From Promethearchaeota archaeon (GTDB taxonomy: Archaea; Asgardarchaeota; Lokiarchaeia; Sigyniarchaeales; SOKP01): 64,000 nt of DNA. This document shows, in pieces, positions 41,473 to 63,702 of this stretch. A program made the position numbers and the translations under genes. How positions within the stretch are numbered: the stretch's first letter is position 1; each line of letters starts with the position of its first letter. The notes beneath the pieces are model-generated. The model ran no database searches. It saw only the letters and a list, made by a program, of their open reading frames with translations, and was not told the origin of the DNA. The stretch is from positions 1-64,000 of the forward strand of contig JAEOTA010000052.1 of assembly GCA_016840085.1 (NCBI GenBank), written 5' to 3'.

Positions 41473-44400
41473 TTACTTAACTTTCTCTTCTTTTTTTTTT
41501 TTAAATAAGTAATAACCTAATACAAAAATAGTTAATATTATTGGAAAGGCAAGCAAAGCAGGATTTCCTCCACTAAAAAGGAATAAATAATATGATAGGG
41601 TTATAATTGATGTAAAAAATGCAATAATAGTATAATATTGACTAGTGAAGTTTTTCAAGCGATTAAGAGCCATGTATACTTTAAAATTTGTATTTTTAAT
41701 CACTTCAAGCTCTGACTCATCGATATCATTTAATACTTCAGGATTTTCAAAATAAATCCCCCATCTAGGATCATACTTTCCTTGTAATTTCTCTTCACTT
41801 ATTAAATATAATAAATGATCCTGAATGTTTTGCTTCTTGATTTTTAATTCCTGGTTCAGGAACGCAATCGTTAAATATTCATTTGCGACTGCTTTAATAG
41901 TCATTTCAATATAAGCTTTTAGAATCAATCTTTCTAATGCTTTAACTTTCTCATTTAGTATCTCCATATATTCGTTTATAAATTTATCAAAATCTTCTAG
42001 AATAAACTTAGAGATTTGATTAAAATTCTTTGATTGTCTATTAAATTCTTTAATCTTAACATTAGCAATTTTATTTATTTCTTTTATCTCGGTTTCAATA
42101 CTTTTTGCTCTTTTTTGAATAATTACATTAAGTTTTTTAAATTCCTTAATTTCGATGTGATCCTCAACTTTTCTTTCTAAATTACCAAGTAATTGGCTTA
42201 AATGGATTTTTTTATTATTAATAAATGCTAATAATTTCCCACGGAAAGATTCATTTTTTAAAAGCTCAATTTGCTCATTAGTTTTTTCCATTTTATTGTT
42301 ATAATCATTTAAGAAATCATTCTTTCTTTTAACATAAAATTCTCTAATTTCAGGAATTAATTTTTCTGAATCATTAGTCTTACTTGATAATTTTTTAATT
42401 TCCTCTTCTATATTACCCCTTGATTGGTTTAATTTCTCTTTAAAATATTCTTCCTTATTCTTAAGAATCTCTTCAACTTCAAAAAAAGAATCCCTTTTTT
42501 CAGATTCCTTTATGAATTTGTTAAAAAATTCTTTTAATTCAATTCTAAGAGAATTATATTTATTTTCGATATAATTTTGCATTTTATTAAAAAGATCTAA
42601 GTTGGTTTTTATAGTTTTAATAGCTAATTCATCATTTTCTAAAGTCGATTCAAAATATTGTTTAGTTGCAATAAATTCTTCTCTTTCTTTATTTATTCCT
42701 AATTCATTCAATTTGTCATAAAATTGTTTCGGAATGATTTCTTTAAAAATTTGTAAATCTTTAATTCGATTTTGAAGTTCTAACATGTTTGTATTTAATG
42801 TTCTATTTCTTATACTTGAATCATAAAGTGCTAAAATCTTCCCAATTCTTTCTCTATTTAACTTCAATAAATTATTGTCTATATAATTCCTGAGTTCTTT
42901 ATTTGAGTAATAAAAATCAGTAAAAACTAAGAGTGATTTATCATCTTCGTTAAGCTGTGCATTTATTTTTGAAATATCAATAATATTTTTTAATCTATTA
43001 ATTAAAAATTTACAAGAAAGTTTTAGCTCCTTCTTTAGGTCAAGAAGATCAATATTATCCGTTTTTTTCTCAACTACCATGGAATGAATTCTGTTAGTAA
43101 TGATATTATTAATATATTCATCTTTTAGGACCGAAATCTCATTGTTGAAAAAATTAGTAAATTTTTCCCATTGCATAATAGTTAATTTGGACTTTTCATT
43201 AAAATCTTCAATTTCTTTTTGACAATCACTTAATTTTTTTAAGTATAATTTGTTAGCTTTTTCAAAATCTGAATTTAGAGAGTCACATTGTTTTATTACA
43301 ATCTCAACCTTTAAATTATCTGATTGATTAAAATAATTTCTGATTTCTGTTAATTTGGATTTAAATTTGAGAATTTCTTGTGTTGTAAAGTTGTCAAAAT
43401 CTTCTATTTTAGATCTATTTCTCTCTTCTAAGACTTTATTCTTTAAAGATTGAACCTGTTTTGCTATTAAATCAATAATATATGATTCTAAATTGTCTAG
43501 TTTTTCTTGTAAATGTTTATATAATATAAAGAGCTTCTGTTTTTGTTTTATCTCATTTTTAATAACAACATGAAGATCTTTAATTTCATTTATTTTTGCA
43601 GATAATAATAAATCAGATTCTTTTTTAATAATTGTAAAAGCTTCTTGAAATTGATTTGAATTAATTTTATATCTAGCTTTTTCACCAATTTCGGATATAT
43701 GAACACTAACTTTTTCTTCTATTTCTTCAACTTCTTTTAATTTATTGTTAAAAAATTGAAAACCATCTGTATAAAAATTAAATACATTTTCGAATTTTTC
43801 TTTAACTTTTACCCAATTATTAATTACTTTCTTATGTTTTTTAACGACTTTCCTTTCTTTTGACGTTATTTGTTGAGAGACTTTATAAATTAAACTATCA
43901 TATTTTCTAACATTTTGAGTTATTATATCTAATTCTTTAATCATTAGATTAAATTTTTCATTCTTGTATTCTTTTTCTAAGACTTCCCTAAATTTTTTCG
44001 TAAAAGCATCAAATTTCTTATTTAAATCATCTTCTATTATTACAACTTTTTCCTTTAAATTGTCTAATATATCATTTAAATTTCTTAGCTCTTCTTTTTC
44101 TTGTATTTTTCCCTTTAGATATGCTTCAACTTCTGCTAGCTTCTTTGGTAAGATAGAATAAGTCTGCTCCCATTCAGCAATCTCTGACCTTAATACTGCT
44201 TGAAGGTTAATATAATATAAAATTTCATTAAATGAATTTTCAATGTTCTCATTTAAAAAATCAGCTTCCATTAAAGCATCTCGGATAATAAATTTTAATC
44301 TTTCTTTGGAATAGTTAATTTCATTAATTAAGAGGTAACTTTCTATTTCTTCTTTTATTTGATAATCAATTTTTTTAAGCTTTAATGTCATATTATAAAT

Positions 44401-45873
44401 ATCATTCTTAATATCCACCAATTTCTCTTTTTCCTCTAAGATTCTCTCAGTATTTATTTCTGTATCGCAAATAATTATTTTTTTATAAATATAGTCCAAA
44501 TAAAATAGATATCTTGTTTTTGATAAAAATCGTTTCTTAGCTTTAATTTTTCCCTTGAAAAAATTTCTCTCTATCATTTCTTTAATAATTGGAAAGATGC
44601 TTTCTCTCAGTTTCAATGTTTCATAGTTTAAAGTTTTATATTTCTTATAAAGAGCAGAAAGAGAAACAATACTATTTTTATTAATTTGATCATAAAATTC
44701 TTTAATGAATTCTTGCCTCCCTTGACTCAAATTTCTAAGAAAATTTTTGAATTCAATCTTGTTATCTAAAATTCTTAACTTAAAATTATAATTAAGATTA
44801 ATATATGATATTATATCTTCAACATCGTTAAGTAAACCAAAATTAGTTTTTAATTGAATTAAATCTATGAATTTTTCTTTCTCAATTTGCTTAAATAAGG
44901 TTCTTTCTACTTCATCAATGAATTTCTTCCACACAAATGATAAAAGGATTGTCAATTTTGAAACATCATGTAATTTATAAACATTCCAATTTGATTGATT
45001 ACTCAGAATCTCATTTAATTTATTATTTATAAAGGAATATATTCCTGCAGGATTATAATCTAAAAACCATGAATATAGGTTAAGAACATACACAATCCAA
45101 AAAGTATCATTAATATTTCCCAGATGATTTAAATTAAAACCACCACTTTCATTTTGAAATTGGTGTAGATATTGGATTTCCTTATCTTTAACTTCAGAAT
45201 CTAAATCCAAATATTTTTGGCAAAGTAATTTAAAAATTAACCCATAACCTTTTTTTCTACTTTCATCAAAAAACCCTCGAAATTGATCTCTATTAAGACG
45301 AACATCAACTCCTATAATTGTAAATATTTCTAAAACAAAAAATAAAGTTCTTCCTGGTGAAATCTTTTTGCATACGTCACATTGCTCATCATGACAGTGC
45401 ATAAAAGTATTTTTCTTTTCATGTGATAAAACAAAGTTTTTAATCTCTAACTTAATATTTTCAGAGGATAAATATTCTTCTAAAAATCCTAAATTTTTCA
45501 AACACGCTAATGCTAAATATGTTGAGTAGATATCAGGAATTTTTTGTATATTAGGAGATAATTTAAATCCTAATTTTTCATTTTGTTGAATTTCACATTT
45601 TTTAATAAAATCAAATATTTCATTCTTTTTTATCTTCTTTTCGTCTTTAAGATATTTCTTTAGTAATAAAAACCAAAAAATGTTTTCTAGCGTTAAATTA
45701 GAGGTATTTACTAAATTATTATTAAAAAATTCATAGAACTTAATAAGATCATTATAGTCACTTAAATAAAAGTTCCCTATATCTTTTTGTTTTACTATAA
45801 TAAAAGATTTAAATGGTTCTTTTTTGAATTCAGTAATATACGGATAAGCAGATTTCTGTTGAACATTAGCCAA
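41473..45873 (-). CDS. Large membrane-tethered protein: prenyltransferase-like repeats, winged-helix/PCI-like domains, long coiled coil, 2 C-terminal TMs
   Basis: GFKLSP..PDIYSTYLAL, QNESGGF; K/E/I-rich heptads; LYLISEEKLQGKYDPRWGIY. Likely TTG start at 45873. Confidence 0.7.
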   Translation of the reverse strand: MANVQQKSAYPYITEFKKEPFKSFIIVKQKDIGNFYLSDYNDLIKFYEFFNNNLVNTSNLTLENIFWFLLLKKYLKDEKKIKKNEIFDFIKKCEIQQNEKLGFKLSPNIQKIPDIYSTYLALACLKNLGFLEEYLSSENIKLEIKNFVLSHEKKNTFMHCHDEQCDVCKKISPGRTLFFVLEIFTIIGVDVRLNRDQFRGFFDESRKKGYGLIFKLLCQKYLDLDSEVKDKEIQYLHQFQNESGGFNLNHLGNINDTFWIVYVLNLYSWFLDYNPAGIYSFINNKLNEILSNQSNWNVYKLHDVSKLTILLSFVWKKFIDEVERTLFKQIEKEKFIDLIQLKTNFGLLNDVEDIISYINLNYNFKLRILDNKIEFKNFLRNLSQGRQEFIKEFYDQINKNSIVSLSALYKKYKTLNYETLKLRESIFPIIKEMIERNFFKGKIKAKKRFLSKTRYLFYLDYIYKKIIICDTEINTERILEEKEKLVDIKNDIYNMTLKLKKIDYQIKEEIESYLLINEINYSKERLKFIIRDALMEADFLNENIENSFNEILYYINLQAVLRSEIAEWEQTYSILPKKLAEVEAYLKGKIQEKEELRNLNDILDNLKEKVVIIEDDLNKKFDAFTKKFREVLEKEYKNEKFNLMIKELDIITQNVRKYDSLIYKVSQQITSKERKVVKKHKKVINNWVKVKEKFENVFNFYTDGFQFFNNKLKEVEEIEEKVSVHISEIGEKARYKINSNQFQEAFTIIKKESDLLLSAKINEIKDLHVVIKNEIKQKQKLFILYKHLQEKLDNLESYIIDLIAKQVQSLKNKVLEERNRSKIEDFDNFTTQEILKFKSKLTEIRNYFNQSDNLKVEIVIKQCDSLNSDFEKANKLYLKKLSDCQKEIEDFNEKSKLTIMQWEKFTNFFNNEISVLKDEYINNIITNRIHSMVVEKKTDNIDLLDLKKELKLSCKFLINRLKNIIDISKINAQLNEDDKSLLVFTDFYYSNKELRNYIDNNLLKLNRERIGKILALYDSSIRNRTLNTNMLELQNRIKDLQIFKEIIPKQFYDKLNELGINKEREEFIATKQYFESTLENDELAIKTIKTNLDLFNKMQNYIENKYNSLRIELKEFFNKFIKESEKRDSFFEVEEILKNKEEYFKEKLNQSRGNIEEEIKKLSSKTNDSEKLIPEIREFYVKRKNDFLNDYNNKMEKTNEQIELLKNESFRGKLLAFINNKKIHLSQLLGNLERKVEDHIEIKEFKKLNVIIQKRAKSIETEIKEINKIANVKIKEFNRQSKNFNQISKFILEDFDKFINEYMEILNEKVKALERLILKAYIEMTIKAVANEYLTIAFLNQELKIKKQNIQDHLLYLISEEKLQGKYDPRWGIYFENPEVLNDIDESELEVIKNTNFKVYMALNRLKNFTSQYYTIIAFFTSIITLSYYLFLFSGGNPALLAFPIILTIFVLGYYLFKKKKEEKVK

Positions 45874-46080
45874 ACTAAAATAAACCCCAAAAACAGTGTT
45901 TTTTATTATTTTGTAATTAATGAAAATTTTAACATATATTTTTTTTGGATAAAAAAAATAATTAATATCTTTTGTTGAAAATAACATTTAGTTGTCATTT
46001 TCATACTTTTTAAATCTCTTTATGAATATTAGCTCTTGAATTAAAAATCACTTGATTCAAAAAAAGTATGATTTAAAGAT

Positions 46081-48622: not shown

Positions 48623-50032
48623 CTATATTGCTCGGCCTATTATTGCTATAATATCTTCGTGTGTGGGTTCTTCAAGAACCTCTAATAAATCATACTCATT
48701 AATCATCTCAAGAATTCCTAATACTTGCAATTCGTGATTATACAAATCATTCGCATCAGATAGATTTCTCCAACAGAATGGGCATTCGGTTGTTAAAATA
48801 TCGGCATTTACAGCATTGGCTTCGTCACATCTTAAACTAGAGGTTCTCAGAGAAAAGTCTGGATATCCTGCACGAACTCCCCCTCCCGCACCACAACACA
48901 TTGAATCCATCTTAATACGATACATCTCAACAAATTTTATTCCAACATCTTCTTCAAGTTTTCTAAGAATTACTCTCGGCTTATCATACCATACTTCTAT
49001 TTGTTGTTTAACTTTCCTCATGTCAATCATTAAGTTCTTAGATTTTTCAATCATCCTTTGCTCCATATCGAGGCCGAAATGTCTACCTGTGTGGCAGGGA
49101 TCATGATAAGTCACTACCTTCCCTTTTAATTCCTTATTTGGTTTAAATTTAATTTTTTCTTTCACAATTAATTCAGATATCATTTCGAATGCATGTTTAG
49201 TTTTAAAGGGAAGTTCATCTTCTTCTATCCATTTGGGATAATCTACTAAAAAGGTTCTATAACATCCCGCACAAGAGAAAAATACCATGTCAAAGTCTTT
49301 AAAATTTTCAAGATTTTTCTTCATTAGATCTTTAGCTGTTGTTACAGAACCAATTCTAAAGAATGGGCTTCCACAACATACCTCATCATTAACTAAAGTA
49401 AAATCTATCCCTAATTTTTCGAAAATTCTACATGTCGCGATAGCTATATTAGTTTGGCGATAACTTGCGGTACATCCAACATAATAGGCATATTTGGCCC
49501 CTTTTTTATCAATATATTTCTCTAATCCCGCATCTTTAGCCCATTTAAATCGTTCTTCTGCTTTCCCACCATAAGGATTATTTAACTCTTTCACTAATTT
49601 ATCTACGTATTGATGCCTTTCTATCATTGGAACACCAGATTCACTACATGCTGCTCTTAAGGATTCAATTATATCCACTGTGCGAACTTTGCTTTCACAT
49701 TGGGCAGCACATTGACCACATGTAATGCAAGGCATGAAAACATCTCTTACTTCCTCTGAGAATTCTAAGTCATCATTAAGAATGGAACGCGCAATCCACA
49801 TCTTTCCAGCATTCCAAAACGCTTCCCATCCATATTCTATACCCGCTGGACAAGCTTCAACCATTCCTTCATATAAAAACGTTCTATTCGTTTTACCCTT
49901 CCATTCACCAACTCCGTCTCTACTTGGTTCACCAGAATAAGCAAATTTACAAGCTTTACAATGAATACAGCGGTATATATCTTTTTTTAATTCTTCTAAT
50001 CTTTTCATTCCTGTAATATTTTTTATAGACAT
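48623..50032 (-). CDS. HdrD/GlpC-like Fe-S oxidoreductase (2 CCG domains)
   Basis: CIHCKAC..CP, CITCGQC, YYVGC..CCGSP..CAGC, YHDPCH..CCGAGGG..CPFC. Confidence 0.92.
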   Translation of the reverse strand: MSIKNITGMKRLEELKKDIYRCIHCKACKFAYSGEPSRDGVGEWKGKTNRTFLYEGMVEACPAGIEYGWEAFWNAGKMWIARSILNDDLEFSEEVRDVFMPCITCGQCAAQCESKVRTVDIIESLRAACSESGVPMIERHQYVDKLVKELNNPYGGKAEERFKWAKDAGLEKYIDKKGAKYAYYVGCTASYRQTNIAIATCRIFEKLGIDFTLVNDEVCCGSPFFRIGSVTTAKDLMKKNLENFKDFDMVFFSCAGCYRTFLVDYPKWIEEDELPFKTKHAFEMISELIVKEKIKFKPNKELKGKVVTYHDPCHTGRHFGLDMEQRMIEKSKNLMIDMRKVKQQIEVWYDKPRVILRKLEEDVGIKFVEMYRIKMDSMCCGAGGGVRAGYPDFSLRTSSLRCDEANAVNADILTTECPFCWRNLSDANDLYNHELQVLGILEMINEYDLLEVLEEPTHEDIIAIIGRAI

Positions 50033-50055
50033 TTTTTTATCACACCTCCTTTATT

Positions 50056-51572
50056 TTATGGAAGGGCAAGCCTCCCAGGATGTAAAATTCCATTTGGATC
50101 AACCAGTTTCTTAATTGCTCGTAAATATTTCCAGTACATTCCAGATTGATAATAAGCTTTAATGTGAATGTATGGATCTGGTCGATAATTCAACCATCCT
50201 TGTTTCAAACCATACTCAGTAGTCTCTCTATTCAATTCTTGAACTCTTTCGATTTCTTCTGTCTTTGTGCTATCAAAGCAAATGATAGGCATACAAATTG
50301 CTTGTCTACCACGCTCAATTGAAGCAACCCACATCGTGGGGGGAAAACCATATTTTTCCATTGCGTTACAATATACTTCACAGAAATGGGCACATTCTGG
50401 CCATGGAGTGTACCATGTAATAAATAGAAAACCGGCATCCCAGAAACTATAAGGAACAGCAATTTTGTTCGGCTTTTTTAATCTGCTTGCGATTTGTTTT
50501 GGATGGAGCTTCTGAGGTTTTATTGAATCAGGGTCTTTAGCTCTATTCTTTTTGTAATCTTTTGCCATTTCATCAATTCTATTTGTAACATAGTCTAATT
50601 CTTCCTGTGTTTGAGCCCAGCATTCAAAATTCATCCACCATTTCGAAATACCTATTTCTTCATAGAATTTATAATCGAGAGGTATTTTATCCTTTGGCCA
50701 TCGAGTCATTACTAGTTGATAATTGCCCCCTTGGACCATTACACAATGATGGGAAATCCCAAATTCTTGCTTTTGGATTTCTAATGTTAAATTCTGCATG
50801 TCATAGGGATTTGACATGCCCCATACAACTATTGTTTTAAATTCGGGATGTGGATAAATCTTTACAACCACTTTTGTGATTACCCCCATGGTCCCTTGAC
50901 TGCCCATTAAAAACGACCATATATCAGGACCAATTCCATATTTGTAGAATGGTTTCGCAGTTGGTAATGCCCAAGAACCAGTCCTTAAAACATCGCCATT
51001 TGGAAACACAACTTCAGCGCACATAAAATTGTCACCTTGTGGTCCCACACTTGAAGTGTATAATGAAAATCCTCTATCAATAGCATCACCCATAACTGTA
51101 GAGGCTGGTGGAGCTCCATCTGGTATTGGTGGTGCCCAATCAGGATGATTTTTATGCATATATGCCCAGAGTTCTCCTATGGTAACTCCCGGTTCGACGA
51201 CACAAAACCGATTTTCTTCATCGATTTCAATAATTCTATCCATTCTTCCTAAATCAAGAAGAACTCCTCCAGGTTTGATCGTTGGACACGAAAAACCGCC
51301 AGATAATCCACCAGAGACAGGACTTACAGCTATTTTTTCTTGAGTACAATATACTAAAATCTTACGAATCTCTTCAACATATTTGGGGCGAACGACGATA
51401 TCAGGGATTTGGCTCTTTAGTCATAATCCGCTTTGGGATAATGGATTTCTAAACCCATCACTGATTTCGCCAGGTAAGATGCTGTAATCGCTTTGTTATT
51501 TGAAGCGTATTCCTTGCCGACGATGCCTATCATGGCCTCCAGATCTTTTTCATCCGGTAATTTGTAGCTCAT
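50056..51572 (-). CDS. FAD-binding oxidoreductase (GlcD/D-lactate dehydrogenase-like); two exons 51572-51447 and 51414-50056, 494 aa
   Basis: Exon 1 MSYKLP..IVGKEYASN..MGLE joins SQIPDIVVRP..GGVLLDLGRMDRI..VEPGVT..GSQGTMGVIT..DPNGILHPG once 32 nt are removed. Confidence 0.9.
51415..51446 (-). other. Bulge-helix-bulge intron in mRNA (32 nt)
   Basis: GGU-UUAG-AA^A-[UCCAUUAUCC CAAAGC GGAUUAUGA]-CUAA-AG^A-GCC: perfect 4-bp central helix, two 3-nt bulges, cuts restore the frame. Confidence 0.88.
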
Positions 51573-53556: not shown

Positions 53557-54102
53557 CTAGTGATTAGATATTTGGTTTAAATTAGTATATTTTGCAATAT
53601 TTTTACGTTTTTTATCATTAATAATAAACTTTTGAAATTCACTATTATCATCATCGATAAATTCCCAAAATTCATCATAAATTTCTTTTAAAGTCATTTT
53701 TTTATTTTTAGTTTTAATACTAGTGTTTGGTTTATAGCCACTATTTTCTCTATTTTCAACCTTGTTTAGGGGGGCATACTTAACGTTATTACTGTCAAGA
53801 GTTATTGTTTCAAATAAGTTAGAATTATCTTTTTCTTTCTGATTGAAAGCTTTTACACCATTTCTTAGTTTTATTGAATTATCTTGATTTAATTCAAGAT
53901 CTACTTTTTGATATCCGCGAATTTGAAAATTCTTATCTACGAAAACCTGAAAATGATGGGGGCATATCAATCCTTTTTGGATTGAAACTGTAGTTAAATG
54001 ATTGTTATTTTTTAGTTCTCTTTCTGGAATACCGATGATATCTCTTGTTTTACAAATGGGACAGATTACTTGGATTTTATTGGTTTTGCAATAAACAACC
54101 AT
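53557..54102 (-). CDS. Lokiarchaeal Zn-finger domain protein
   Basis: CPIC..ICPHHFQVFVDKNFQIRGYQKVD. Confidence 0.65.
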   Translation of the reverse strand: MVVYCKTNKIQVICPICKTRDIIGIPERELKNNNHLTTVSIQKGLICPHHFQVFVDKNFQIRGYQKVDLELNQDNSIKLRNGVKAFNQKEKDNSNLFETITLDSNNVKYAPLNKVENRENSGYKPNTSIKTKNKKMTLKEIYDEFWEFIDDDNSEFQKFIINDKKRKNIAKYTNLNQISNH

Positions 54103-54199: not shown

Positions 54200-55003
54200 T
54201 TAGTCCTTTAAAAACTTTTTTGATGAATATCTCATACCAAGAAAGAGAAAAAACAGTGAAAATATTAAACTTAAGGGTAAATTTCCAATAACAATATAAG
54301 CGAAATTGGGTGCTATTGAATAAAAATATAGCGTAATAGAAATCACGAGATAAATGAAGGAATTTAAGACCGCAATTTTCCAGTTTGGAGCTAAAAAGCC
54401 TAGAACTAAATTTGGAAGCAAAAATAAAATGATAATGTTTACTGTCGATAATAATATTAAATACGGCATAAATCTATCGAATAATTGTTCTGGAGTCACG
54501 AATCGGTTTAATCTAAAAAAATCATATATGAAGTATGTTACGTTGATACTCAATAGTATCAAAAAGTAAGACAAAGGCCCTGCGATCAACCAAGACATTA
54601 ACATTCTTATCCTAGGGGATTGCATGGTTTTCCCTTTTAAATTATTATTAATAATTCTTTCCATGTCATCAGGGAAAATTGTATTCGGGTCATAATCAGG
54701 CGAAAAAGCATCAATAAAATCTTGCATGATATTTGTAAGAATAAGTCTGACCAGCGCGTTATTATCATTATCACTTACAATAGCGGCTCCAAGAATTCTT
54801 TCTTCTGATATTGGTACTAAAATGAGTTTATTATTTTCCCCTAGATCAACATTTTTAACGATAGTTCCTAATGCCTCTCTGCTAAAGTTAGAGATTGATG
54901 AGAAAAAACCTATTAATATATTTTGATCGTATTTTTTTTTCATGTAATTTTTGGAATATAACAGGATTCCATTCTCATCCAAGATATATAAACTTTTTAT
55001 CAT
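54200..55003 (-). CDS. Longin-like domain fused to ~4 TM helices
   Basis: MIKSLYILDENGILLYSKNY..ILIGFFSSISNFSRE..LILTNIMQDFIDAF longin pattern; hydrophobic C-terminal half. Confidence 0.75.
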   Translation of the reverse strand: MIKSLYILDENGILLYSKNYMKKKYDQNILIGFFSSISNFSREALGTIVKNVDLGENNKLILVPISEERILGAAIVSDNDNNALVRLILTNIMQDFIDAFSPDYDPNTIFPDDMERIINNNLKGKTMQSPRIRMLMSWLIAGPLSYFLILLSINVTYFIYDFFRLNRFVTPEQLFDRFMPYLILLSTVNIIILFLLPNLVLGFLAPNWKIAVLNSFIYLVISITLYFYSIAPNFAYIVIGNLPLSLIFSLFFLFLGMRYSSKKFLKD

Positions 55004-55039
55004 AATTCACAACTTTTTTTATAATATTTTAATAAATTT

Positions 55040-56785
55040 TTATGTATTTTCAAAAAATTCCAAATAATCCCCTAAAGATGCCTTATATCTTTTAAAACTA
55101 AATAGATATTGACCAAATAATTCTGTTAATCGAATTACCATCTGATTAGGGTCAGAGTTTAAATATAATTTATATTTTTCATTTTTTCGTTCTTCTCTGA
55201 TTTTAGCTATTTCCTCAAATTTAAAAAGTTTTTTTATCAATTTTTCATCAGGATGATTTAATTCAATTGTTATTATTTCACCAGATTGAGGTAATTCTTC
55301 AATTAGTTTATTATATGTTCCAATCTTAGATTCATCTTTACTAATAGTCAATATCTGATCGCAATTTGATACAATTCCTTCAGGGCCATGAAATACTAAT
55401 ATCACACGGAATTCTTTTTTAATTTTCTCTATGTAATTATTAAATTTTTCATATTCTAGTCGATCTAAAATTATAAGTGGTATCAAAAACGTAATTATTG
55501 AGGGTGATTGAAGTAAGGCTCTTCCAATTGAAAATAAGAGAAATTCTAATTGTGTTAATTTTGAAAATCTTTTATTCTTTTTATTTAATAATCCCGTAAC
55601 TTCTAAAGCACTGTTGATATACGCTCTTTTTTTGAAAATCATTCTCATTGCTGCTTTTGCAAATAAATCACTCATAATTTCATCTAAACTAGGAGTTATT
55701 CCTGCTTTTTTTAAAATTTGGTTTAAAATTGATTTCTTCTGTTCAATAATTTCTTTAATATTTATACCATAGTAGATTGCTTTCTTAATTTTCATATTTA
55801 GTATTTTTGATTCATAGGCTTGAGGTAAAATAAAGATGCTCTCTTTTTCCTTTTTTTCTAATAATTGAATAGGCGTTCCAAAAATTTCAATAGTTCCAGA
55901 AAAATCGGAGTAACTACCAGAAATAGCTTGAAATAAATTCAAAATATCATAATCATGACTTACATTCTTCAAGTGTTCATCTTCAAAAATTATCCCTATT
56001 GATTTACCTTTATGAATTTTAAATGAAACATTCTTAATACTATCATTTATGGATAGGTTTTTAATAACTAAATATTGAGAGTGTTCCCTTAATAGATCAA
56101 TTTTAAGACGTCTTGATACAAGTTCACATACTTTTTCGATTAATTGATAAATATGTGGTGGATTTATTTCATTCCAATTTTTAATTATCTCTTCTTCATT
56201 AAACTCTCTTTCTTTTAAAACTTTTAAAAGTGTTTTTGAAAAAGAAAATGACGGAATAAGAGGATAATTTTCAAAATTTACCTTTAGTTCTATAACAAAA
56301 TAAGGGAAAGATATTCTTATTTCTTTATGATAAGGATTATTATCAATTACATAATTTTCAAATTTTTCATCAATTAATTTTGCTTCAGTTTCTAGAAGAG
56401 CCAGATGTTTTTGAAATTCCCTTCTAATTAATTTCCTCATACGTCCTATAATTTTACTTGGACTAACAAGACCATCTTCATCAAAATCAGGTTCCACAAT
56501 AATTTCATTAAAATCAATTTCCTCTTCTATTGGAGTATAAATTTCTAATAATGGCACTCCTTTTTCCATAACATCTTTGTTTGTAAAGAATAATACTTCA
56601 AAAAAGGATTTTTTATAAATTAAATTCAAAATTGATGCAATACCAAATGTATTTTCTCTATAAGTCATCCAAAAACGTCTAGAAAATCTAATTGCGTCTA
56701 AAATTTTTAATCTTAGACGCTCCAATTCAATGTTTCTCGGTTCCTCCATTAATTTAGCTTTTTTTAATGCACTAGAGTTTTTCAA
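55040..56785 (-). CDS. UBC/RWD-like domains fused to a degenerate ABC ATPase
   Basis: VNFENYPLIPSFSF..IKNWNEINPPHIYQLI; ABC fold (NVSFKIHKG, IGRALLQSP) with Walker A, signature and Walker B lost. TTG start after GGAGGTG. Confidence 0.7.
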   Translation of the reverse strand: MKNSSALKKAKLMEEPRNIELERLRLKILDAIRFSRRFWMTYRENTFGIASILNLIYKKSFFEVLFFTNKDVMEKGVPLLEIYTPIEEEIDFNEIIVEPDFDEDGLVSPSKIIGRMRKLIRREFQKHLALLETEAKLIDEKFENYVIDNNPYHKEIRISFPYFVIELKVNFENYPLIPSFSFSKTLLKVLKEREFNEEEIIKNWNEINPPHIYQLIEKVCELVSRRLKIDLLREHSQYLVIKNLSINDSIKNVSFKIHKGKSIGIIFEDEHLKNVSHDYDILNLFQAISGSYSDFSGTIEIFGTPIQLLEKKEKESIFILPQAYESKILNMKIKKAIYYGINIKEIIEQKKSILNQILKKAGITPSLDEIMSDLFAKAAMRMIFKKRAYINSALEVTGLLNKKNKRFSKLTQLEFLLFSIGRALLQSPSIITFLIPLIILDRLEYEKFNNYIEKIKKEFRVILVFHGPEGIVSNCDQILTISKDESKIGTYNKLIEELPQSGEIITIELNHPDEKLIKKLFKFEEIAKIREERKNEKYKLYLNSDPNQMVIRLTELFGQYLFSFKRYKASLGDYLEFFENT

Positions 56786-59700
56786 CTTTAGGCACCTCCA
56801 TTGCTTTATAACGGAAATATTGTTCCATTTTAGAATCAATTTGTTTTATTTCTTGAATTGAATCTTTACCTGTCTCTTCTTCAATTTTTTCTATCAGATC
56901 ATCAATATTTAAATTAGTAAATATTGAAAAATCTGTACCTGCTTTGTTTTCTAAAACCTTTTCTATCCCTTCAATCATTTCAAGTCTTTCTATCATATTC
57001 TCTTGTATATCAGTGAAAATTATTTCAATTGACCTGCCTTTCCCAGGTAAATTACTTAAAAGCATTTTAGGATCTCCATAATCTATCATTCCACGTTTTC
57101 TACCAAAAATTGCGACAAGATTACAAAATCTGGATTCTTCAGGATAATGTGTTATAACTACTAATGTTGTATTAAATTGTTCATTAATTTTTGTTAATAC
57201 AATCCATAGATGCTCCCTTACCACAGGATCAAGACCTGACGTCGGTTCATCACATATTAAGAACATAGGAGAATGAATTAATCCTATTGCGATACTAACC
57301 CGTCTTTTTTGTCCACCCGACAGATTTTTGACTAATTCATCCATTTTATCTTCAATTTCCAAGCTACGTAAAATTCTTTTAGCTTTACTTATTATTTCTT
57401 TTTCTGTAAGCCCATATTGATTCCCAAAATATAATAAATTCTCAAACGTCGTAAAATTGTGGTATATTTTACCTAAATCTTGCGGGACATAACCATATAT
57501 AGGTCGAATTCTTCTTGATGTACTTCTATTCATATCCATTCCATACACTTGACAGAATCCTGTAATTTTTCTCATACCGAGTAAACCTTTAATGAAAGTA
57601 GATTTACCGGCACCACTCTCTCCTAAAATTCCTAATATTCTACCGTGTTCTACATTCATAGAGACAGAATCTACGATTAGCTTTCCCCCTGCATAAACAC
57701 TTAAATTTTCACAATTTATGGCAGAAAGTTTTTCTAAATAAACTTTATTAAGTTTTCCACCAATTCCTAATAATAACTTAATCCTTTGTGGTATTGAAAG
57801 TCTTTGATACAATTTGAATAAAATGAATAAAGCAATTCCAGCAGCTTCTAGTAATAAGATATAAATTAATAATTGTGTCCATGGTTTAGAATCAAAACTC
57901 TGGTCATATTTTAATTCATCTATGATTATAATACCATTAGCAGTATTTCTTAAATCTCCCCCAAATCCTGGATTATCTCCAACTCCTCCTGTATTTGAAC
58001 TAATACATTGAGCAAACCAATTTAATGTATTTCTAATATTTTCGGGTTGAAATCTATAATCATAAAGACCTTTTGATCCAAAATATGTTATTAAAAATGT
58101 TGATGGCAATCCTAAATAGGCTCCAAGGGCGGGTAAAACTGAAAATGAACCATCAGAAGTCTGTGCATTTTTTAAAAATTCGATTGAAGCTATTTTAGAC
58201 ATTGGTTCAGAATTTAATAAATCTGTAAATATCTCTAATGCAAAATACGTTGAAATCACATCACTATGAAATCCCACAAATATTGAAAATCCACCATCAG
58301 GATTTTGACATGATCTCAACCAATGAGTAAGATTAACATTATCGATAAAAGCTAACCTGTCAAGAATATCAAGTGAATATAATCCCCAATATGTACTCTC
58401 CATAGTAGAAATGTTGGAATTAATGAAATACAAGAAAACTTGATGAAATGGACCATACATTGATAAAATTACATCCACATCTCCCCCGATCTTAAAACCA
58501 CCATCAGGATTCTGGAGATCAACCAAATATTTTGTTATATTCCCAATTTCAAATTCATCAAACCATTTATTAGTAGAAGGGTAAAGCATGTTGTAAATAT
58601 TCAACCCACAATAAGTAGCAAATAGAGTTGTGTTTTCCCCTGGAGTGGATGCAAAACCTCCTTCATATTGATTATAACATTGGTCAACAAAGAGCAAAAT
58701 ATTCTCTAAGATATCTTTAGTAATGAAATCTTCATCAATATATACAGAATTATATTTATAAAGTGCAGATACTCCATAAAAATTAGCTTCAATCGTCGTA
58801 CGACCAAATAAAGAATTTTTACCTTGAAACAAATGAAGCCATTCATAATATCTTAAAGTAGAATTTATAATATCATTATTATTTATTAATTTATCTTGTT
58901 TGAGAATTTCAATTGATTTCAGTGCAGCCCATCCAGGAGTAAAATCTGAAATAGAATCTGATCCCGGACGTGATCCAAAACCTCCATCTGAATTAGAGCA
59001 GTTAATAATATATTCAAGGGTTTTATTCTCATTAAAAGATAAAGGTTTTGGTAAATTTAGTATTTTTAAAGATGATAAAGCATAATATGTTGATTCTACA
59101 TCAGAAACTCCCCCTGGAATGTTTGCAAATCCTCCATCTATAATACTATAAAGTGACCCTATATAAATCCAAATTGCAAATTCTTCTGTAGCTGTATAAG
59201 TCATGTTCATTCCAAGAAAAGCTTTTATTCCATAATATGTTATTTCGGCTGATGCAATACTCAGATCATCATTCGTTAATTTATAGCTACCAGCAAGCCA
59301 AGTGGCATTAATATATTTTGATATGTTTTCATTTTTGAGAACAACACCAGCATTTAACATATTCGCCAAATCAATAGCACAAGATGTAGAAATTATATCT
59401 GATTCATTAAGGAATGATATTAACTTAAACCCCTCGCCATTATCTTTCAAGGAATTATTAAGATAATTTACAATATTTTCTGTCTTATTTTGTTGAATTT
59501 TTCGATTCAAATAAGATTTATTGGCAATCTCAAGAGTTTTTATTGCACTATGGGTAGAAATCATACTCCCAAGTCCACCCACATCTGAATATGAACCATC
59601 GTAGTTTTGTTTTTCAAAAATATAATCAAAAAAGATATTTGGTCTTAGTTTTCTTATGTATTTATTTGAAATATTATTAGGATTTTCTAAACTAGAAGAA

Positions 59701-59966
59701 AATTCCTCAGCAATAGAAAAGTTTATTGAGTCAATTGCTCTGAAATTTGAATCTAAATTAGGTTCAATAAATAAGCCAAGATCATTTTGATGAGTCCATG
59801 CAAAAAAAGCAACGTTATCTTTAATGAATTTAACATCATCTTCTTCTATGTATGATGTATAACGAACATTCACTAGCGCTAATGTAATAATAGGTACACC
59901 AACGAGAATACCTAGAATTATTATTAATTTTAGTAATCGCTTACTTTTGCGACCTAAACTTATTAT
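56772..59966 (-). CDS. TM - prenyltransferase/squalene-cyclase-like repeat toroid - TM - ABC ATPase fusion
   Basis: Repeats QNYDGSY, CSNSDGGF, QNPDGGF x2, QTSDGSF; GESGAGKS, LSGGQ, ICDEP. The frame extends upstream of GTG 59873 through a TM to ATA 59966. Confidence 0.85.
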   Translation of the reverse strand: MISLGRKSKRLLKLIIILGILVGVPIITLALVNVRYTSYIEEDDVKFIKDNVAFFAWTHQNDLGLFIEPNLDSNFRAIDSINFSIAEEFSSSLENPNNISNKYIRKLRPNIFFDYIFEKQNYDGSYSDVGGLGSMISTHSAIKTLEIANKSYLNRKIQQNKTENIVNYLNNSLKDNGEGFKLISFLNESDIISTSCAIDLANMLNAGVVLKNENISKYINATWLAGSYKLTNDDLSIASAEITYYGIKAFLGMNMTYTATEEFAIWIYIGSLYSIIDGGFANIPGGVSDVESTYYALSSLKILNLPKPLSFNENKTLEYIINCSNSDGGFGSRPGSDSISDFTPGWAALKSIEILKQDKLINNNDIINSTLRYYEWLHLFQGKNSLFGRTTIEANFYGVSALYKYNSVYIDEDFITKDILENILLFVDQCYNQYEGGFASTPGENTTLFATYCGLNIYNMLYPSTNKWFDEFEIGNITKYLVDLQNPDGGFKIGGDVDVILSMYGPFHQVFLYFINSNISTMESTYWGLYSLDILDRLAFIDNVNLTHWLRSCQNPDGGFSIFVGFHSDVISTYFALEIFTDLLNSEPMSKIASIEFLKNAQTSDGSFSVLPALGAYLGLPSTFLITYFGSKGLYDYRFQPENIRNTLNWFAQCISSNTGGVGDNPGFGGDLRNTANGIIIIDELKYDQSFDSKPWTQLLIYILLLEAAGIALFILFKLYQRLSIPQRIKLLLGIGGKLNKVYLEKLSAINCENLSVYAGGKLIVDSVSMNVEHGRILGILGESGAGKSTFIKGLLGMRKITGFCQVYGMDMNRSTSRRIRPIYGYVPQDLGKIYHNFTTFENLLYFGNQYGLTEKEIISKAKRILRSLEIEDKMDELVKNLSGGQKRRVSIAIGLIHSPMFLICDEPTSGLDPVVREHLWIVLTKINEQFNTTLVVITHYPEESRFCNLVAIFGRKRGMIDYGDPKMLLSNLPGKGRSIEIIFTDIQENMIERLEMIEGIEKVLENKAGTDFSIFTNLNIDDLIEKIEEETGKDSIQEIKQIDSKMEQYFRYKAMEVPKVEKL

Positions 59967-60997
59967 TTTTTTATCACCTTCACGTTCTCGAGACTTTTTT
60001 CTTTTTCTTCTTCCATTTGAATCCGTATTTGAAAGTATCGTCTAAAAGTAGCAATGTCTTTACTCATTGATTTAACAATTATATTATTTTCAATCATATA
60101 GTGAATCAATTTTGGCAGATTTTCTTCAAAATCTCCCAAGAGAACTTCAATTGCTTCATTTCCAACCCTAATAATTCTTCTTATCGGTGGAAAATTTCTA
60201 ATAAATTCGATAATCCTTTCATTTAGATTTTCAATTGTAAATCTTGCTATTAATCCTTCACTTGGTAAAGAGGAAATTAGGTTTTGAGAAGTATCAAACT
60301 CTAATAGCTTTCCTTCCCTTAGAATAGCCGCTTTATCACATATTAAAGCGGCTTCCAAATCATGTGTAATTATAAACATCGTTGTATTCAATTTCTGGTT
60401 TAATTTCTTTAAATAACTTAGTATATCATAGCGTTTTGAAGCGTCAACCCCCGTTGTTGGCTCATCTAGGAATAGAACGTCGGGGTTATGAATTAATCCG
60501 ATAGCCATTGATAATCGCTTTTTTTCTCCCCCACTCATCCGTTTAACACTCTTATTCCATGTATCTTCAGGGATATCAAGGATTTTAAATAACCTTTCAG
60601 CAGTTTCTTGTGCTTTTTGTTTATTCATTCCATAGGTAGATGTGAAAACTTCTACATTTACCATCGGATCTAATTCAAAATACAAATTCAACAATTCGAG
60701 TTGTGGAACATAACCGATATTGCTAAGAATCCGAGCATGGTTACTCTTTTTTTCAGGAGATAACCCAGTTACCTTCACCGTTCCAGTCCAATGCTTTTTT
60801 TCGATTTGACATGTCATTACTCTCACTATAGTTGTTTTTCCAGCTCCTGAGATTCCAAAAAGTCCAATAATTTCTCCCTGATTAACAACAAAGGAAACAT
60901 CATGAACAACATGTTTTTCACCGAATTTAACATTTAGATCCCTAACATCTACCATTCTCTTTTTTGATTTCAATGAAATGATATTTCTACACCTCAT
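59963..60997 (-). CDS. ABC transporter ATP-binding protein
   Basis: GISGAGKT, VPQ, MSGGE, FLDEP, ITH; exact start uncertain. Confidence 0.93.
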   Translation of the reverse strand: MRCRNIISLKSKKRMVDVRDLNVKFGEKHVVHDVSFVVNQGEIIGLFGISGAGKTTIVRVMTCQIEKKHWTGTVKVTGLSPEKKSNHARILSNIGYVPQLELLNLYFELDPMVNVEVFTSTYGMNKQKAQETAERLFKILDIPEDTWNKSVKRMSGGEKKRLSMAIGLIHNPDVLFLDEPTTGVDASKRYDILSYLKKLNQKLNTTMFIITHDLEAALICDKAAILREGKLLEFDTSQNLISSLPSEGLIARFTIENLNERIIEFIRNFPPIRRIIRVGNEAIEVLLGDFEENLPKLIHYMIENNIIVKSMSKDIATFRRYFQIRIQMEEEKEKSLENVKVIKK

Positions 60998-62306
60998 ATT
61001 GTCTTCTTTTGAAAATTAAAAAGGAAACCACTATTAACACTATACTAATTGCTAATAACCAAAAGAAGTGGAGTCCAAATATAGACTGACCTTTTTGAAT
61101 TATGCCACGAAGCAACGGGTCTCCATGAGATAATGGTAGAATATATGCGATAACTTGTAAATAGGGAGGCATGTTTTCAATAGGAATGAATATACCACTT
61201 AATAAAACAGCCACAAGAAAAGTAGCGAGAAATAATTGGTTAGCCTGAGTTTTTGTTTTGCTTTGTGAACTAATAAAAACACCCATCGTTAATCCAGAAA
61301 ACCCTATCATAAACAACGCTAGAAATAAATCTGGGATGGTACCAGCTACATATAAACCCATAGATAAACCGCTAATTATTAATAGAGTAACTTGAAATAG
61401 TAATACAAGGGTATAGGTGATATATTTAGAAAGTAAAATCTCTGATCTCTTTACAGGAGTAAGTAAAAGTCGTGCTATTGGTTTCTCCTGGACAATTACT
61501 AAAATAGATAACACTAATGCAATACCAAAAACCATAAAAGAGAGAGCCATAATTATGCTAGTATTGAAATTTCTGCTATACCCTTCAGGAATAGCAAATT
61601 CTTCAAACCCTTGAACCGTAAATTGTGGAGTCAGATTATTGTCATTTATGAATATTTTGATTGAATCATAGACAGAATTTAGATTCTGTTGAATATATTG
61701 AATATTTGAGGAATCAGGAATACAATCGATCAAACCAGGTAATCCCCATTCTAGGAATTCAGTAAAATCGACCGGTAATGATATGATAACATTGATTGTT
61801 CCTGATAGTAATTCATTTCTAGCCTCTTCCATAGCATAAATTTCCTCTGTTGCATTATAAAATCGAACTAATTCAAGCATTTTTGATTTATTTACTGCGT
61901 CTACATACGGCATAGTATAGTTATCTAATTTTGATTCAGTAAAGTCATTTTGATTGATAAATGTATTAGAATCATAAGATATTAATATACAGGGTATGGC
62001 GTCGGTTTCTTGAGGCACATCTGTCAATGTAAAGCCCAACATGATAATTATTAAAGGGGGCATCACAATTGCTAGGAATAAATTGAATTTATCCGTCCAT
62101 AAAAGCCTAAACTCTTTTTTAACTTGTTTTAAGATTCTAAGAGCATTGGTTTTTAAACCTGAAATTTTTTTAATAACTTTTTTAGAATCAGGTTTTAATG
62201 TTAATATTCTATTTTTGACTTTTTCAAGATTTGGTTTTAATTTCGAAAATTTATTTTTGAATTTTTTAATACCAGGCTTTAAAGATCTCTTCTTCAATTT
62301 TGTCAT
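60987..62306 (-). CDS. ABC-2 type permease
   Basis: TM1, large external loop, EK..RLLLTP..EILLSK, LSGIFIPIENMP..LPLSH. Confidence 0.92.
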   Translation of the reverse strand: MTKLKKRSLKPGIKKFKNKFSKLKPNLEKVKNRILTLKPDSKKVIKKISGLKTNALRILKQVKKEFRLLWTDKFNLFLAIVMPPLIIIMLGFTLTDVPQETDAIPCILISYDSNTFINQNDFTESKLDNYTMPYVDAVNKSKMLELVRFYNATEEIYAMEEARNELLSGTINVIISLPVDFTEFLEWGLPGLIDCIPDSSNIQYIQQNLNSVYDSIKIFINDNNLTPQFTVQGFEEFAIPEGYSRNFNTSIIMALSFMVFGIALVLSILVIVQEKPIARLLLTPVKRSEILLSKYITYTLVLLFQVTLLIISGLSMGLYVAGTIPDLFLALFMIGFSGLTMGVFISSQSKTKTQANQLFLATFLVAVLLSGIFIPIENMPPYLQVIAYILPLSHGDPLLRGIIQKGQSIFGLHFFWLLAISIVLIVVSFLIFKRRQYEV

Positions 62307-63461
62307 TTACACCTCCAATTTCTTAAACATATAGATGATATAAGCTAATGTAACGTAAATCAAAGAACTTAAGTTAAGCCAAAATAGACTTACCAAATTT
62401 GGTGATAATCCTTTTAGAGTTATATCTGTTATCATTGGTATAGCATTAGATAATGGAAGTAAATTCATAAAAATTTGCATTCCTCCTTCAGTATCACCTA
62501 AAGGAAGAAGGCTTCCTGAAAAAAGCATTATTACTATGAACATAATTAAGTACATTTGATTTGCACTTTGTTCCGTAGGGCTTAAAGCCGAAATAAATAA
62601 TCCAATACAAATACCGCTAAAACCAATCATAATTAAAACTAAAAAGAATAAAAACAACGAACCTAAACTGTATAATCCAAAGAAAGCGGTCATTACAAAA
62701 ATTTCAGTTGATTGTAATAACATAATTACAGAATTCGCAATTAATTTGCTTAAAATTATTTCTCTTTTAGCAGTTGGAGTTATAAGCATCCGAGGAAGTG
62801 GTGCCTCAGAAACTATTGAGAGTGAAGTTAAATTCATGGTAGTTCCAAGAATTATAATGGGCAAAATTAATGGGATTGCATAATTTAGAATTGCTGACTC
62901 CCAAAAGGGTACATCAAATTCTAGATATGGTACCATAATCGTAAAATTAGCTATCATATCTGTTTGGGCTCTAAATAAAGCGATCGGCTCTTGAATAGCT
63001 ATTTCAATGGCTGATATTGCTTGGAAATCTGATCCATCAATATGATAAATTAGAACTGGATTTGTTTTATTTTCAACTGATTCTGAAAAATTTTCTGGTA
63101 AAATAATGATTATGTCAATATCACCATTCTTAAGAAAATTATAACAATTTTGATATGCATTATCAAATTCTTCTGAATCTGTTGCATTATAATACTTGTA
63201 AAGATCCCATGTTGAGGTTTCATTTTGCATTATCGAAATAAACATCTTATCATGCTTTGAAGAATTAGATGGAAAATCATCATATGTTGGCATATAATCT
63301 CTAGTTACAATAGCTCCGGTAAAGAATTTTGTGGGACCTCCTCCTGTAGTAAGACCAAAAACAAGAATTAAAATTACTGGGATTATAAATAATAAAATTA
63401 ATGTCCTTTTATCAGATTTAATTCTTCCAAATTCTTTTCTGATTAATCCGCCTAGATACAT
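62307..63461 (-). CDS. ABC-2 type permease
   Basis: KEF..DKRTLILLFIIP, RMLITP..EIILSK, FSGSLLP..LPLS. Confidence 0.92.
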   Translation of the reverse strand: MYLGGLIRKEFGRIKSDKRTLILLFIIPVILILVFGLTTGGGPTKFFTGAIVTRDYMPTYDDFPSNSSKHDKMFISIMQNETSTWDLYKYYNATDSEEFDNAYQNCYNFLKNGDIDIIIILPENFSESVENKTNPVLIYHIDGSDFQAISAIEIAIQEPIALFRAQTDMIANFTIMVPYLEFDVPFWESAILNYAIPLILPIIILGTTMNLTSLSIVSEAPLPRMLITPTAKREIILSKLIANSVIMLLQSTEIFVMTAFFGLYSLGSLFLFFLVLIMIGFSGICIGLFISALSPTEQSANQMYLIMFIVIMLFSGSLLPLGDTEGGMQIFMNLLPLSNAIPMITDITLKGLSPNLVSLFWLNLSSLIYVTLAYIIYMFKKLEV

Positions 63462-63702
63462 TATTTAAGGCTTAAAAGTAAAATTGTTGTAATCTTAAGA
63501 GTTAATAAGATGCTTTTATAATAAACATTTATTGTCAAAATTATCCAATTACCTTAATATTTTTTCTACAAAATATATTTTATTTAAAGAAGTTATTCTA
63601 TTCTAACTAAATAATCTAAATCTTTAAGTTATATTAATTATTTTTGTAATTATTATTTCTCATTCAATTGATTCTAAATAGAGGTTGACTACTACGTCAG
63701 AT

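Follow-up and report, generated by a model that had tools for sequence, protein, structure and literature searches.

What would an archaeal ATP-binding cassette (ABC) transporter of the ABC-2 type do with three kinds of ATPase, a prenyltransferase-type toroid, and domains that resemble the eukaryotic UBC and longin folds? This question is raised by a stretch of 64,000 nucleotides (contig JAEOTA010000052.1, positions 1 to 64,000 of the forward strand; hereafter the window) from the nearly complete 4.7 Mb genome of a Promethearchaeota archaeon of the class Lokiarchaeia, where it is contig C47. A prediction made from the letters alone had placed six co-oriented genes between positions 54,200 and 63,461, and had proposed that they serve subunit exchange or a signalling or trafficking complex that links export to ubiquitin-like and small-GTPase modules. 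Longin and UBC-fold proteins of Asgard archaea count as eukaryotic signatures, but for most of them a partner is not known (PMC4917890). Here, these folds gain a concrete membrane context in one fixed, expressible operon whose function is directly testable. The reading that we favor, and to which we give about an even chance of being right, is that the operon encodes a Lokiarchaeia-specific type V exporter (ABC-2; ABCA/ABCH/YbhFSR-like) of hydrophobic cargo, such as a lipid or isoprenoid, equipped with a surface acceptor and cytoplasmic adaptors.

Gene order and distribution of the operon

All six genes lie on the minus strand at the positions originally assigned to them, with intergenic distances of 0, approximately 13, -4, -14, and 36 bases. 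A divergent gene for a CoA-binding-domain protein, which begins at 63685, marks the upstream limit of the six-gene unit. To determine how far this arrangement extends, we surveyed 400 Asgard genomes (161 from Lokiarchaeia and 239 others), a sample in which related genomes are not independent and in which absences are limited by incomplete genomes. Within Lokiarchaeia, the dead-ATPase protein is found in 86 of the 161 genomes, the full toroid fusion in approximately 85, and an ortholog of the longin protein in approximately 83. These three add-on genes occur mostly in the same genomes, and the mismatches that we examined fall mostly at contig ends. The exact six-gene order is present in 30 non-redundant loci and in a further seven with small insertions, while most of the remaining loci run off contig edges. 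The operon is thus kept by about half of the sampled Lokiarchaeia, and conservation of order in 30 + 7 loci is more than chance would produce.

There are departures from this order. The block is rearranged in three genomes of one deeper family, in which the longin gene is not adjacent; the dead-ATPase gene of one family is divergently transcribed, with the longin gene elsewhere; and three genomes carry extra genes between the toroid ATPase and the dead ATPase. In one genome (L095:7314-8947), the longin-TM gene persists beside no more than the 3' end of a dead-ATPase gene; the 20 kb examined there contain no core gene, and the locus looks like a decayed copy.

Outside the class, the full toroid fusion turns up in only one of the 239 other Asgard genomes, as part of a five-gene version that lacks an adjacent longin gene, and the RWD pair described below was not found outside Lokiarchaeia in any of the 400 genomes searched. 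Public records name homologs of the dead ATPase as Promethearchaeota or Lokiarchaeia. The operon is confined almost wholly to Lokiarchaeia, and is probably an invention of this lineage rather than a direct ancestor of a eukaryotic system.

The transporter core and its ATPase lineages

The first two genes encode ABC-2 permeases. Permease 1 (62307..63461, minus strand, 384 residues) consists of a first transmembrane (TM) helix, an extracellular domain, and further TM helices, and scores 106 bits against PF12698. Permease 2 (60987..62306, minus strand, 439 residues) has six hydrophobic segments and scores 95 bits against the same family, for which the cut-off is 31.6 bits. Both also exceed the cut-offs of PF01061 and PF12679, and both show, by Pfam and a scan for TM helices, an ABC-2 membrane domain with an extracellular domain between TM1 and TM2. 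The two permeases share 32% identity (tblastn). The best solved match of permease 1 is the Tribolium ABCH transporter (PDB 8yzp/9ju6, E = 2e-10).

The third gene (59963..60997, minus strand) encodes a free ABC ATPase with a C-terminal regulatory domain, which we call the A type (PF00005, 3.5e-24); its start lies somewhere from 60997 to 60973. Its top PDB matches are ABCA3 and ABCA1. Its best NCBIfam matches are DrrA and RbbA, each below its cut-off (187 bits versus 312 for DrrA), and no NCBIfam equivalog cut-off is reached for the named families DrrA, RbbA, NodI, and GldA. The ATPase domain of the toroid protein, which we call the B type, likewise exceeds the PF00005 cut-off. Given that the Walker A, Q-loop, signature, Walker B, D-loop, and H-loop motifs are kept in both ATPases across approximately 44 homologs of each, both are judged by motif to be intact. 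Two permeases, an intact ATPase, and a toroid-ATPase fusion had been called originally, and the Pfam cut-offs and conserved motifs uphold those calls.

This core resembles DrrAB, NodIJ, RbbA-YhhJ, YbhFSR, and Thermotoga TM_1403 (PDB 4yer) in having two ABC-2 permeases, an extracellular domain after TM1, and ATPases with a C-terminal regulatory domain, but it misses every NCBIfam equivalog cut-off for prokaryotic ABC-2 exporters such as DrrA and RbbA. To our knowledge, in none of these exporters is an ATPase joined to an ectodomain, and none includes a dead third ATPase that bears RWD domains or a longin subunit. The best solved matches of the permease and the free ATPase are to ABCH (Tribolium ABCH-9C, 8yzp) and ABCA lipid exporters. 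Those are fused chains, whereas the parts of the Lokiarchaeia operon are separate, and the likeness is one at the level of matches, from which we do not claim common ancestry.

In 12 relatives, the free ATPase gene is interrupted by an insert of 31-34 bases, always at the same codon just past Walker B, which can adopt a hairpin with bulge-helix-bulge geometry (L080:11718-11749, L097:11708-11741, L100:4055-4087, L101:2286-2317, L106:7602-7632, L108:7681-7711, L126:4155-4186, L130:2930-2960, L131:4905-4935, L132:6831-6861, L133:9561-9591, and L134:9899-9929). The central four-base helix is fully paired in 10 of these and paired at three of four positions in the other two, with compensating changes between two sequence types, and taking the insert out restores the reading frame. 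By these features, the insert is identified as a tRNA-type intron. It is present neither in the window copy, which is intron-less (the site would lie near 60450), nor in 41 other copies. A further apparent intron on the plus strand of L126 was a pattern artifact in an unrelated ATPase and was dropped.

We then placed the three ATPases of the operon in a careful tree rooted on the other ABC ATPases of the window genome, which were its only outgroup, and also built a larger, quicker tree. The free ATPases form an A clade (support 99/96) that includes those of a second, sister module. The toroid ATPase, the fused ATPase of the sister module, and the dead ATPase form a B clade (support 96/99). Profile comparison with hhalign agrees, with the dead ATPase domain nearer the B ATPase (2e-25) than the A ATPase (4e-20). 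The dead ATPase thus appears to be a supernumerary copy of the B type.

The sister module (loci L030-L039 and L109, in other Lokiarchaeia) contains a free ATPase, two permeases, a fused, intact B-type ATPase, and a large S8 protease of 1,300-1,800 residues with a GIFT domain, which is a sequon-rich surface protein. The B ATPase of this module carries a soluble N-terminal domain, which is winged-helix/UFL1-like in L109. Its ATPases belong to the A and B lineages found in the operon, and like the operon it has two permeases and a large surface protein rich in sequons, but it is without toroid, dead ATPase, and longin; it shows the same plan of a core plus an ectodomain. As an aside, its protease with GIFT domain is reminiscent of site-1 protease. 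Because a single A and a single B ATPase make up the full ATPase set of the sister module, an A:B pair is the simplest, and likely, motor. Since the dead ATPase groups with the B type, it could compete for the B seat of that motor, and we read it as a competitor or adaptor there. The subunit exchange that had been proposed from the presence of three ATPases gains indirect support in this form.

The toroid, the RWD pair, and the longin protein

The toroid-ATPase gene (56772..59963, minus strand) encodes approximately 1063 residues arranged as TM1, a double alpha/alpha toroid predicted to be extracellular, TM2, the intact B-type ATPase, and a C-terminal domain. The open reading frame (ORF) caller took the GTG at 59873 as the start of this gene, but upstream of it the frame stays open for approximately 90 bases, and those bases code for a basic patch followed by a strong TM helix (59859..59945, hydropathy 3.0) that the caller overlooked. 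Both this helix and TM2 (57804..57881), which lies ahead of the ATPase, are present in 44 of 44 aligned homologs. In 24 of 43 homologs, there is no ATG, GTG, or TTG within the 22 codons before TM1, and an isoleucine codon usually stands just before the basic patch. In the window, an ATA codon in the 59960-59975 region overlaps the upstream stop and follows a Shine-Dalgarno-like run, suggesting that the gene has a probable non-canonical start (isoleucine codon, ATA) near 59963. Public gene calls for this protein range from approximately 920 to 1067 residues; they often drop TM1 and label the protein a prenyltransferase, which is misleading. The toroid-ATPase fusion of the original prediction therefore stands, with its start moved approximately 90 bases upstream, a TM helix added at its N terminus, and its toroid predicted to lie outside the cell.

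That placement follows from the basic residues ahead of TM1 and behind TM2, which predict that the N terminus and the ATPase are inside the cell and the toroid is outside. The distribution of N-glycosylation sequons agrees: there are 2.3 per 100 residues in the toroid and 1.0 in the ATPase part, and ten are conserved in at least half of the sequences. The toroid itself (57894..59801) scores 135 bits against PF00432 (cut-off 26.5; 6e-39) and comprises approximately 12 helical-hairpin repeats, which suffice for two barrels, as we infer.

Alpha/alpha toroid repeats are shared with RabGGT-beta, which the toroid matches at 1e-26 by profile, and with squalene-hopene-type cyclases. The operon toroid differs from these enzymes in being predicted to be extracellular and glycosylated, in having approximately twice the repeat number of the transferase, in lacking both the zinc triad and DxDD, and in being fused to an ATPase. 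The zinc ligands of RabGGT-beta (Asp-x-Cys and His) are replaced; among 44 toroid homologs, no zinc-ligand set is conserved, nor is a DxC at the catalytic repeat. The DxDD motif of class II terpene and squalene-hopene cyclases occurs in only three of the 44, and the locus contains no prenyltransferase alpha subunit. The invariant polar residues D663, D670, R672, and N673 lie together in the last repeat and may mark a binding site. Given that toroids recur on other Asgard surface proteins and that catalytic motifs are absent here, the toroid is best seen as a reusable, non-catalytic ectodomain, and its description as a eukaryote-like prenyltransferase does not hold.

Other predicted surface proteins of the window genome also bear toroids. 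A further prenyltransferase-type toroid occurs in a 1,504-residue protein (41473-45987, minus strand; PF00432, 9e-9) encoded approximately 8 kb from the operon. Other Asgard families (L113-L123 and L125) have a conserved trio, whose domains we scanned in L114 and L115, made up of a toroid protein of 800 residues, a 1,400-residue fusion of toroid, 7TM, and ATP-grasp domains, and a transglutaminase-like protein.

The fifth gene (55040..56785, minus strand, 581 residues) has a TTG start behind a Shine-Dalgarno-like run and encodes a tandem RWD/UEV part, an ABC ATPase, and a C-terminal domain. The AlphaFold2 model of the whole protein has a predicted local distance difference test (pLDDT) score of 85. 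Residues 235-581 form an ABC ATPase fold with a C-terminal domain as in TM_1403 (Foldseek; top match 4yer), and the structural matches of this fold include NosF together with its regulatory domain. No member of the family has kept Walker A, signature, Walker B, or D-loop. By sequence, then, the third ATPase is predicted to be catalytically dead while keeping the ABC fold.

The N-terminal part (56096..56740), folded alone, yields two alpha/beta units with a pLDDT of 92. Foldseek ranked the double-RWD proteins FANCL, KNL1, and CENP-O, together with BRE, first, with weak E-values. With VIA, this part matches Ubc8 with a Z score of 10.0 (root-mean-square deviation 3.0, 98 residues aligned), and UBC- or RWD-fold chains fill nearly all of the best 50 rows. 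The second unit is well supported. The first has weaker matches, to the RWD domain of Listerin (Z 7.5, deviation 3.2, 100 aligned) and, across both units, to FANCL and KNL1. The top Atlas match of this part is a Lokiarchaeia RWD/UBC cluster, and a profile of the RWD part finds the window genome's member of that cluster, which exceeds the Pfam UQ_con and RWD cut-offs, at 1e-21. The two units do not align to each other by profile. The second carries a YPxxP motif, but there is no cysteine at the E2 catalytic site and no HPN; the sole cysteine, residue 220 in the last helix, is present in 18 of 47 sequences. The modeled structure therefore describes a tandem, non-catalytic RWD/UEV pair that has the UBC fold and is not an E2 enzyme, which corrects the single UBC-like domain originally called to two. 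In a fold search with the whole 581-residue model, the matches listed were filled by the ATPase domain and did not show the RWD part. Matches to Rpb8 and EF-hand, from single-sequence Pfam searches and first-round PDB profiles that missed RWD and longin, were set aside against the fold searches.

The first RWD unit averages 72% identity across 29 loci, where the active ATPases reach 78% and the dead ATPase 50%. A mean of 72% places the first RWD unit among the most conserved parts of the operon and indicates that it is under strong constraint. FANCL, KNL1, CENP-O/P, and BRE, like E2 and UEV folds, offer the nearest likeness: two tandem UBC-fold units, YPxxP in the second, and no catalytic cysteine. 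Unlike them, the operon pair is fused to a dead ABC ATPase. Asgard RWD- and UEV-like domains have been recorded only singly (PMC6601020), and an archaeal tandem bears on how FANCL and the double-RWD proteins of the kinetochore arose (PMC6601020), although the domains may equally well have been duplicated independently. The closest paralog of the pair in the window genome is a 550-residue protein with several tandem UBC/RWD units (L140:1045-2694, contig C78).

The sixth gene (54200..55003, minus strand) encodes 267 residues. The window protein alone has no Pfam match in a single-sequence search, but a profile built on it picks up, within the window genome, longin-like proteins as well as a longin-GTPase fusion. 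When widened with 106 relatives, the profile reaches TRAPP Bet5 at 1.7e-5 and Mon1 at 1.5e-3, followed by Trs23 and VAMP7. Among the 107 members, Pfam reports Fuz_longin_1 in 24 and Longin in 11, with four longin families in all. Atlas feature searches gave only unnamed clusters and a lead of 0.82 to Fuz_longin_1. These results support assignment of the N-terminal ~120 residues (1-120) to a longin domain, as the original prediction had it. The homology to TRAPP Bet5, Mon1, VAMP7, and AP sigma/mu is at the profile level over approximately 100 residues. Unlike the longins of these proteins, this one belongs to a transporter operon and is joined almost directly to four successive TM helices, the first beginning at residue 134, approximately 14 residues past the longin; there is no room for an R-SNARE coiled coil between longin and TM anchor, and none is present. 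Longin-4TM proteins form a wider family. The idea that the four TM helices of this protein and the two of the toroid protein make up a split ABC-2 domain was rejected (hhalign probability 0.1%), though one member had matched PF12698. Complex prediction for the longin-TM protein with the RWD/dead-ATPase protein scored 0.00, which is no answer and carries no weight either way.

The eukaryote-like folds of the operon are thus genuine but non-catalytic. Our literature search, for which subscription papers were mostly beyond reach, found no description of the operon, in line with the original prediction, and the accessible part of an Asgard transporter survey, where ABC-2 systems appear as drug or uncharacterized exporters, makes no mention of the six-gene architecture (PMC7997004). 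Two architectures are apparently undescribed: an ABC ATPase joined through the membrane to an ectodomain, and a dead ATPase conserved as a third copy.

Proposed export of hydrophobic cargo and its alternatives

In the exporter that we favor, the permease heterodimer would be driven by a heterodimer of the free A-type and the B-type ATPase. The B ATPase would be tethered via its two TM helices to a glycosylated, non-catalytic double toroid poised over the exit, where the toroid may bind or receive cargo or may anchor the pump in the envelope. The dead ATPase, a copy of the B lineage, could dock on or swap into the B seat by means of its kept fold and C-terminal domain, and so act as a brake or an adaptor while its RWD pair binds other proteins. 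The weakest step is the last, in which the longin-4TM protein would have joined this regulatory arm later as a membrane adaptor. In favor of the exporter are the best solved matches, to ABCH and to ABCA3/ABCA1, and the toroid fold, whose solved relatives bind isoprenoids. Tribolium ABCH exports ceramide (PMC12578276).

Several observations weigh against the exporter. The ABCA/ABCH matches are modest and do not fix a substrate, and the cargoes of prokaryotic ABC-2 systems include drugs and peptides as well (PMC7997004). Toroid ectodomains are found on unrelated Asgard surface proteins, including the 7TM and ATP-grasp fusions, and may be plain scaffolds. The dead ATPase of one relative from outside Lokiarchaeia has no RWD domains, and deeper-branching loci have no adjacent longin gene, which is the loosest part of the assembly. 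Finally, the dead ATPase sits on a long branch, which loosens its exact placement within the B clade, and the outgroup of the tree is limited to the window genome's ATPases.

The alternative that survives best, although we consider it unlikely, is a mechanotransducer like NosDFY, in which ATP cycles of the A:B pair would move the permease extracellular domains and the toroid so that an envelope component is loaded, released, or assembled with no cargo crossing the membrane. NosDFY itself works as a mechanotransducer, NosF is among the structural matches noted above, and in both Lokiarchaeia modules a big surface protein accompanies the core, as a fusion in the operon and as a protein of its own in the sister module. 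The permeases, however, match a true exporter, ABCH, and no gene for a client enzyme is conserved nearby.

Somewhat less likely again is a receptor-like signaling or trafficking complex, in which the toroid would sense a ligand, the dead ATPase would read the state of the ATPase, and the RWD and longin domains would recruit the ubiquitin system and small GTPases. The topology of the toroid protein is receptor-like, the tandem RWD and longin folds are supported by searches, the identity of the first RWD unit is close to that of the active ATPases, and the window genome holds a true E2-family gene as well as longin-GTPase fusions. The RWD pair, however, has no catalytic cysteine, RWD domains have many roles unrelated to ubiquitin (PMC6601020), and longin folds by themselves are no sign of trafficking (PMC4917890). 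In the flanking clusters, which are only partly annotated, we identified no conserved neighbor that encodes ubiquitin, E1, E3, or a GTPase, and the locus offers no candidate small-GTPase partner for the longin. The link to ubiquitin and small GTPases drawn in the original prediction is therefore one of folds only. In a bolder version, which we hold to be improbable, the ABC machine would be coupled to a receptor: when the toroid binds a ligand outside the cell, the B seat would switch between active and dead ATPase, with the RWD pair and the membrane longin relaying the state to the Asgard ubiquitin and small-GTPase systems. If true, this would be a precursor, in a prokaryote, of membrane traffic or quality control coupled to a transporter.

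It is more doubtful still that the transcript carries two separate units, an exporter of four genes and, independent of it, the dead ATPase together with the longin-TM protein. The family with a divergent dead-ATPase gene and a distant longin gene, the L095 remnant, the three genomes with inserted genes, and the wider family of longin-4TM proteins all speak for such a division. The dead ATPase, however, adjoins the core even when inverted and is of B-lineage origin, its gene overlaps that of the toroid ATPase by 14 bases, and no near-complete genome was seen with an intact dead-ATPase/longin pair that lacks the core. It is very improbable that the toroid works outside the cell as an active prenyltransferase or terpene cyclase and modifies exported cargo, since its similarity to RabGGT-beta and cyclases and its invariant polar residues, which lie where the cavity should be, are set against replaced zinc ligands, the want of a conserved DxC, the rarity of DxDD, and the missing alpha subunit.

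Two neighbors of the exporter operon deserve mention. A gene pair for a FAD-linked oxidase and a CCG/Fe-S protein (48623-51243, minus strand) follows the operon in many family members, and probably reflects neighborhood rather than function. A small Cys-pair (zinc-ribbon-like) protein (53557..54102, minus strand), which has five paralogs in the window genome, is a possible regulator or seventh member of the operon; its gene adjoins the operon in 23 loci but switches side, lying downstream in nine and upstream of the first permease in 14.

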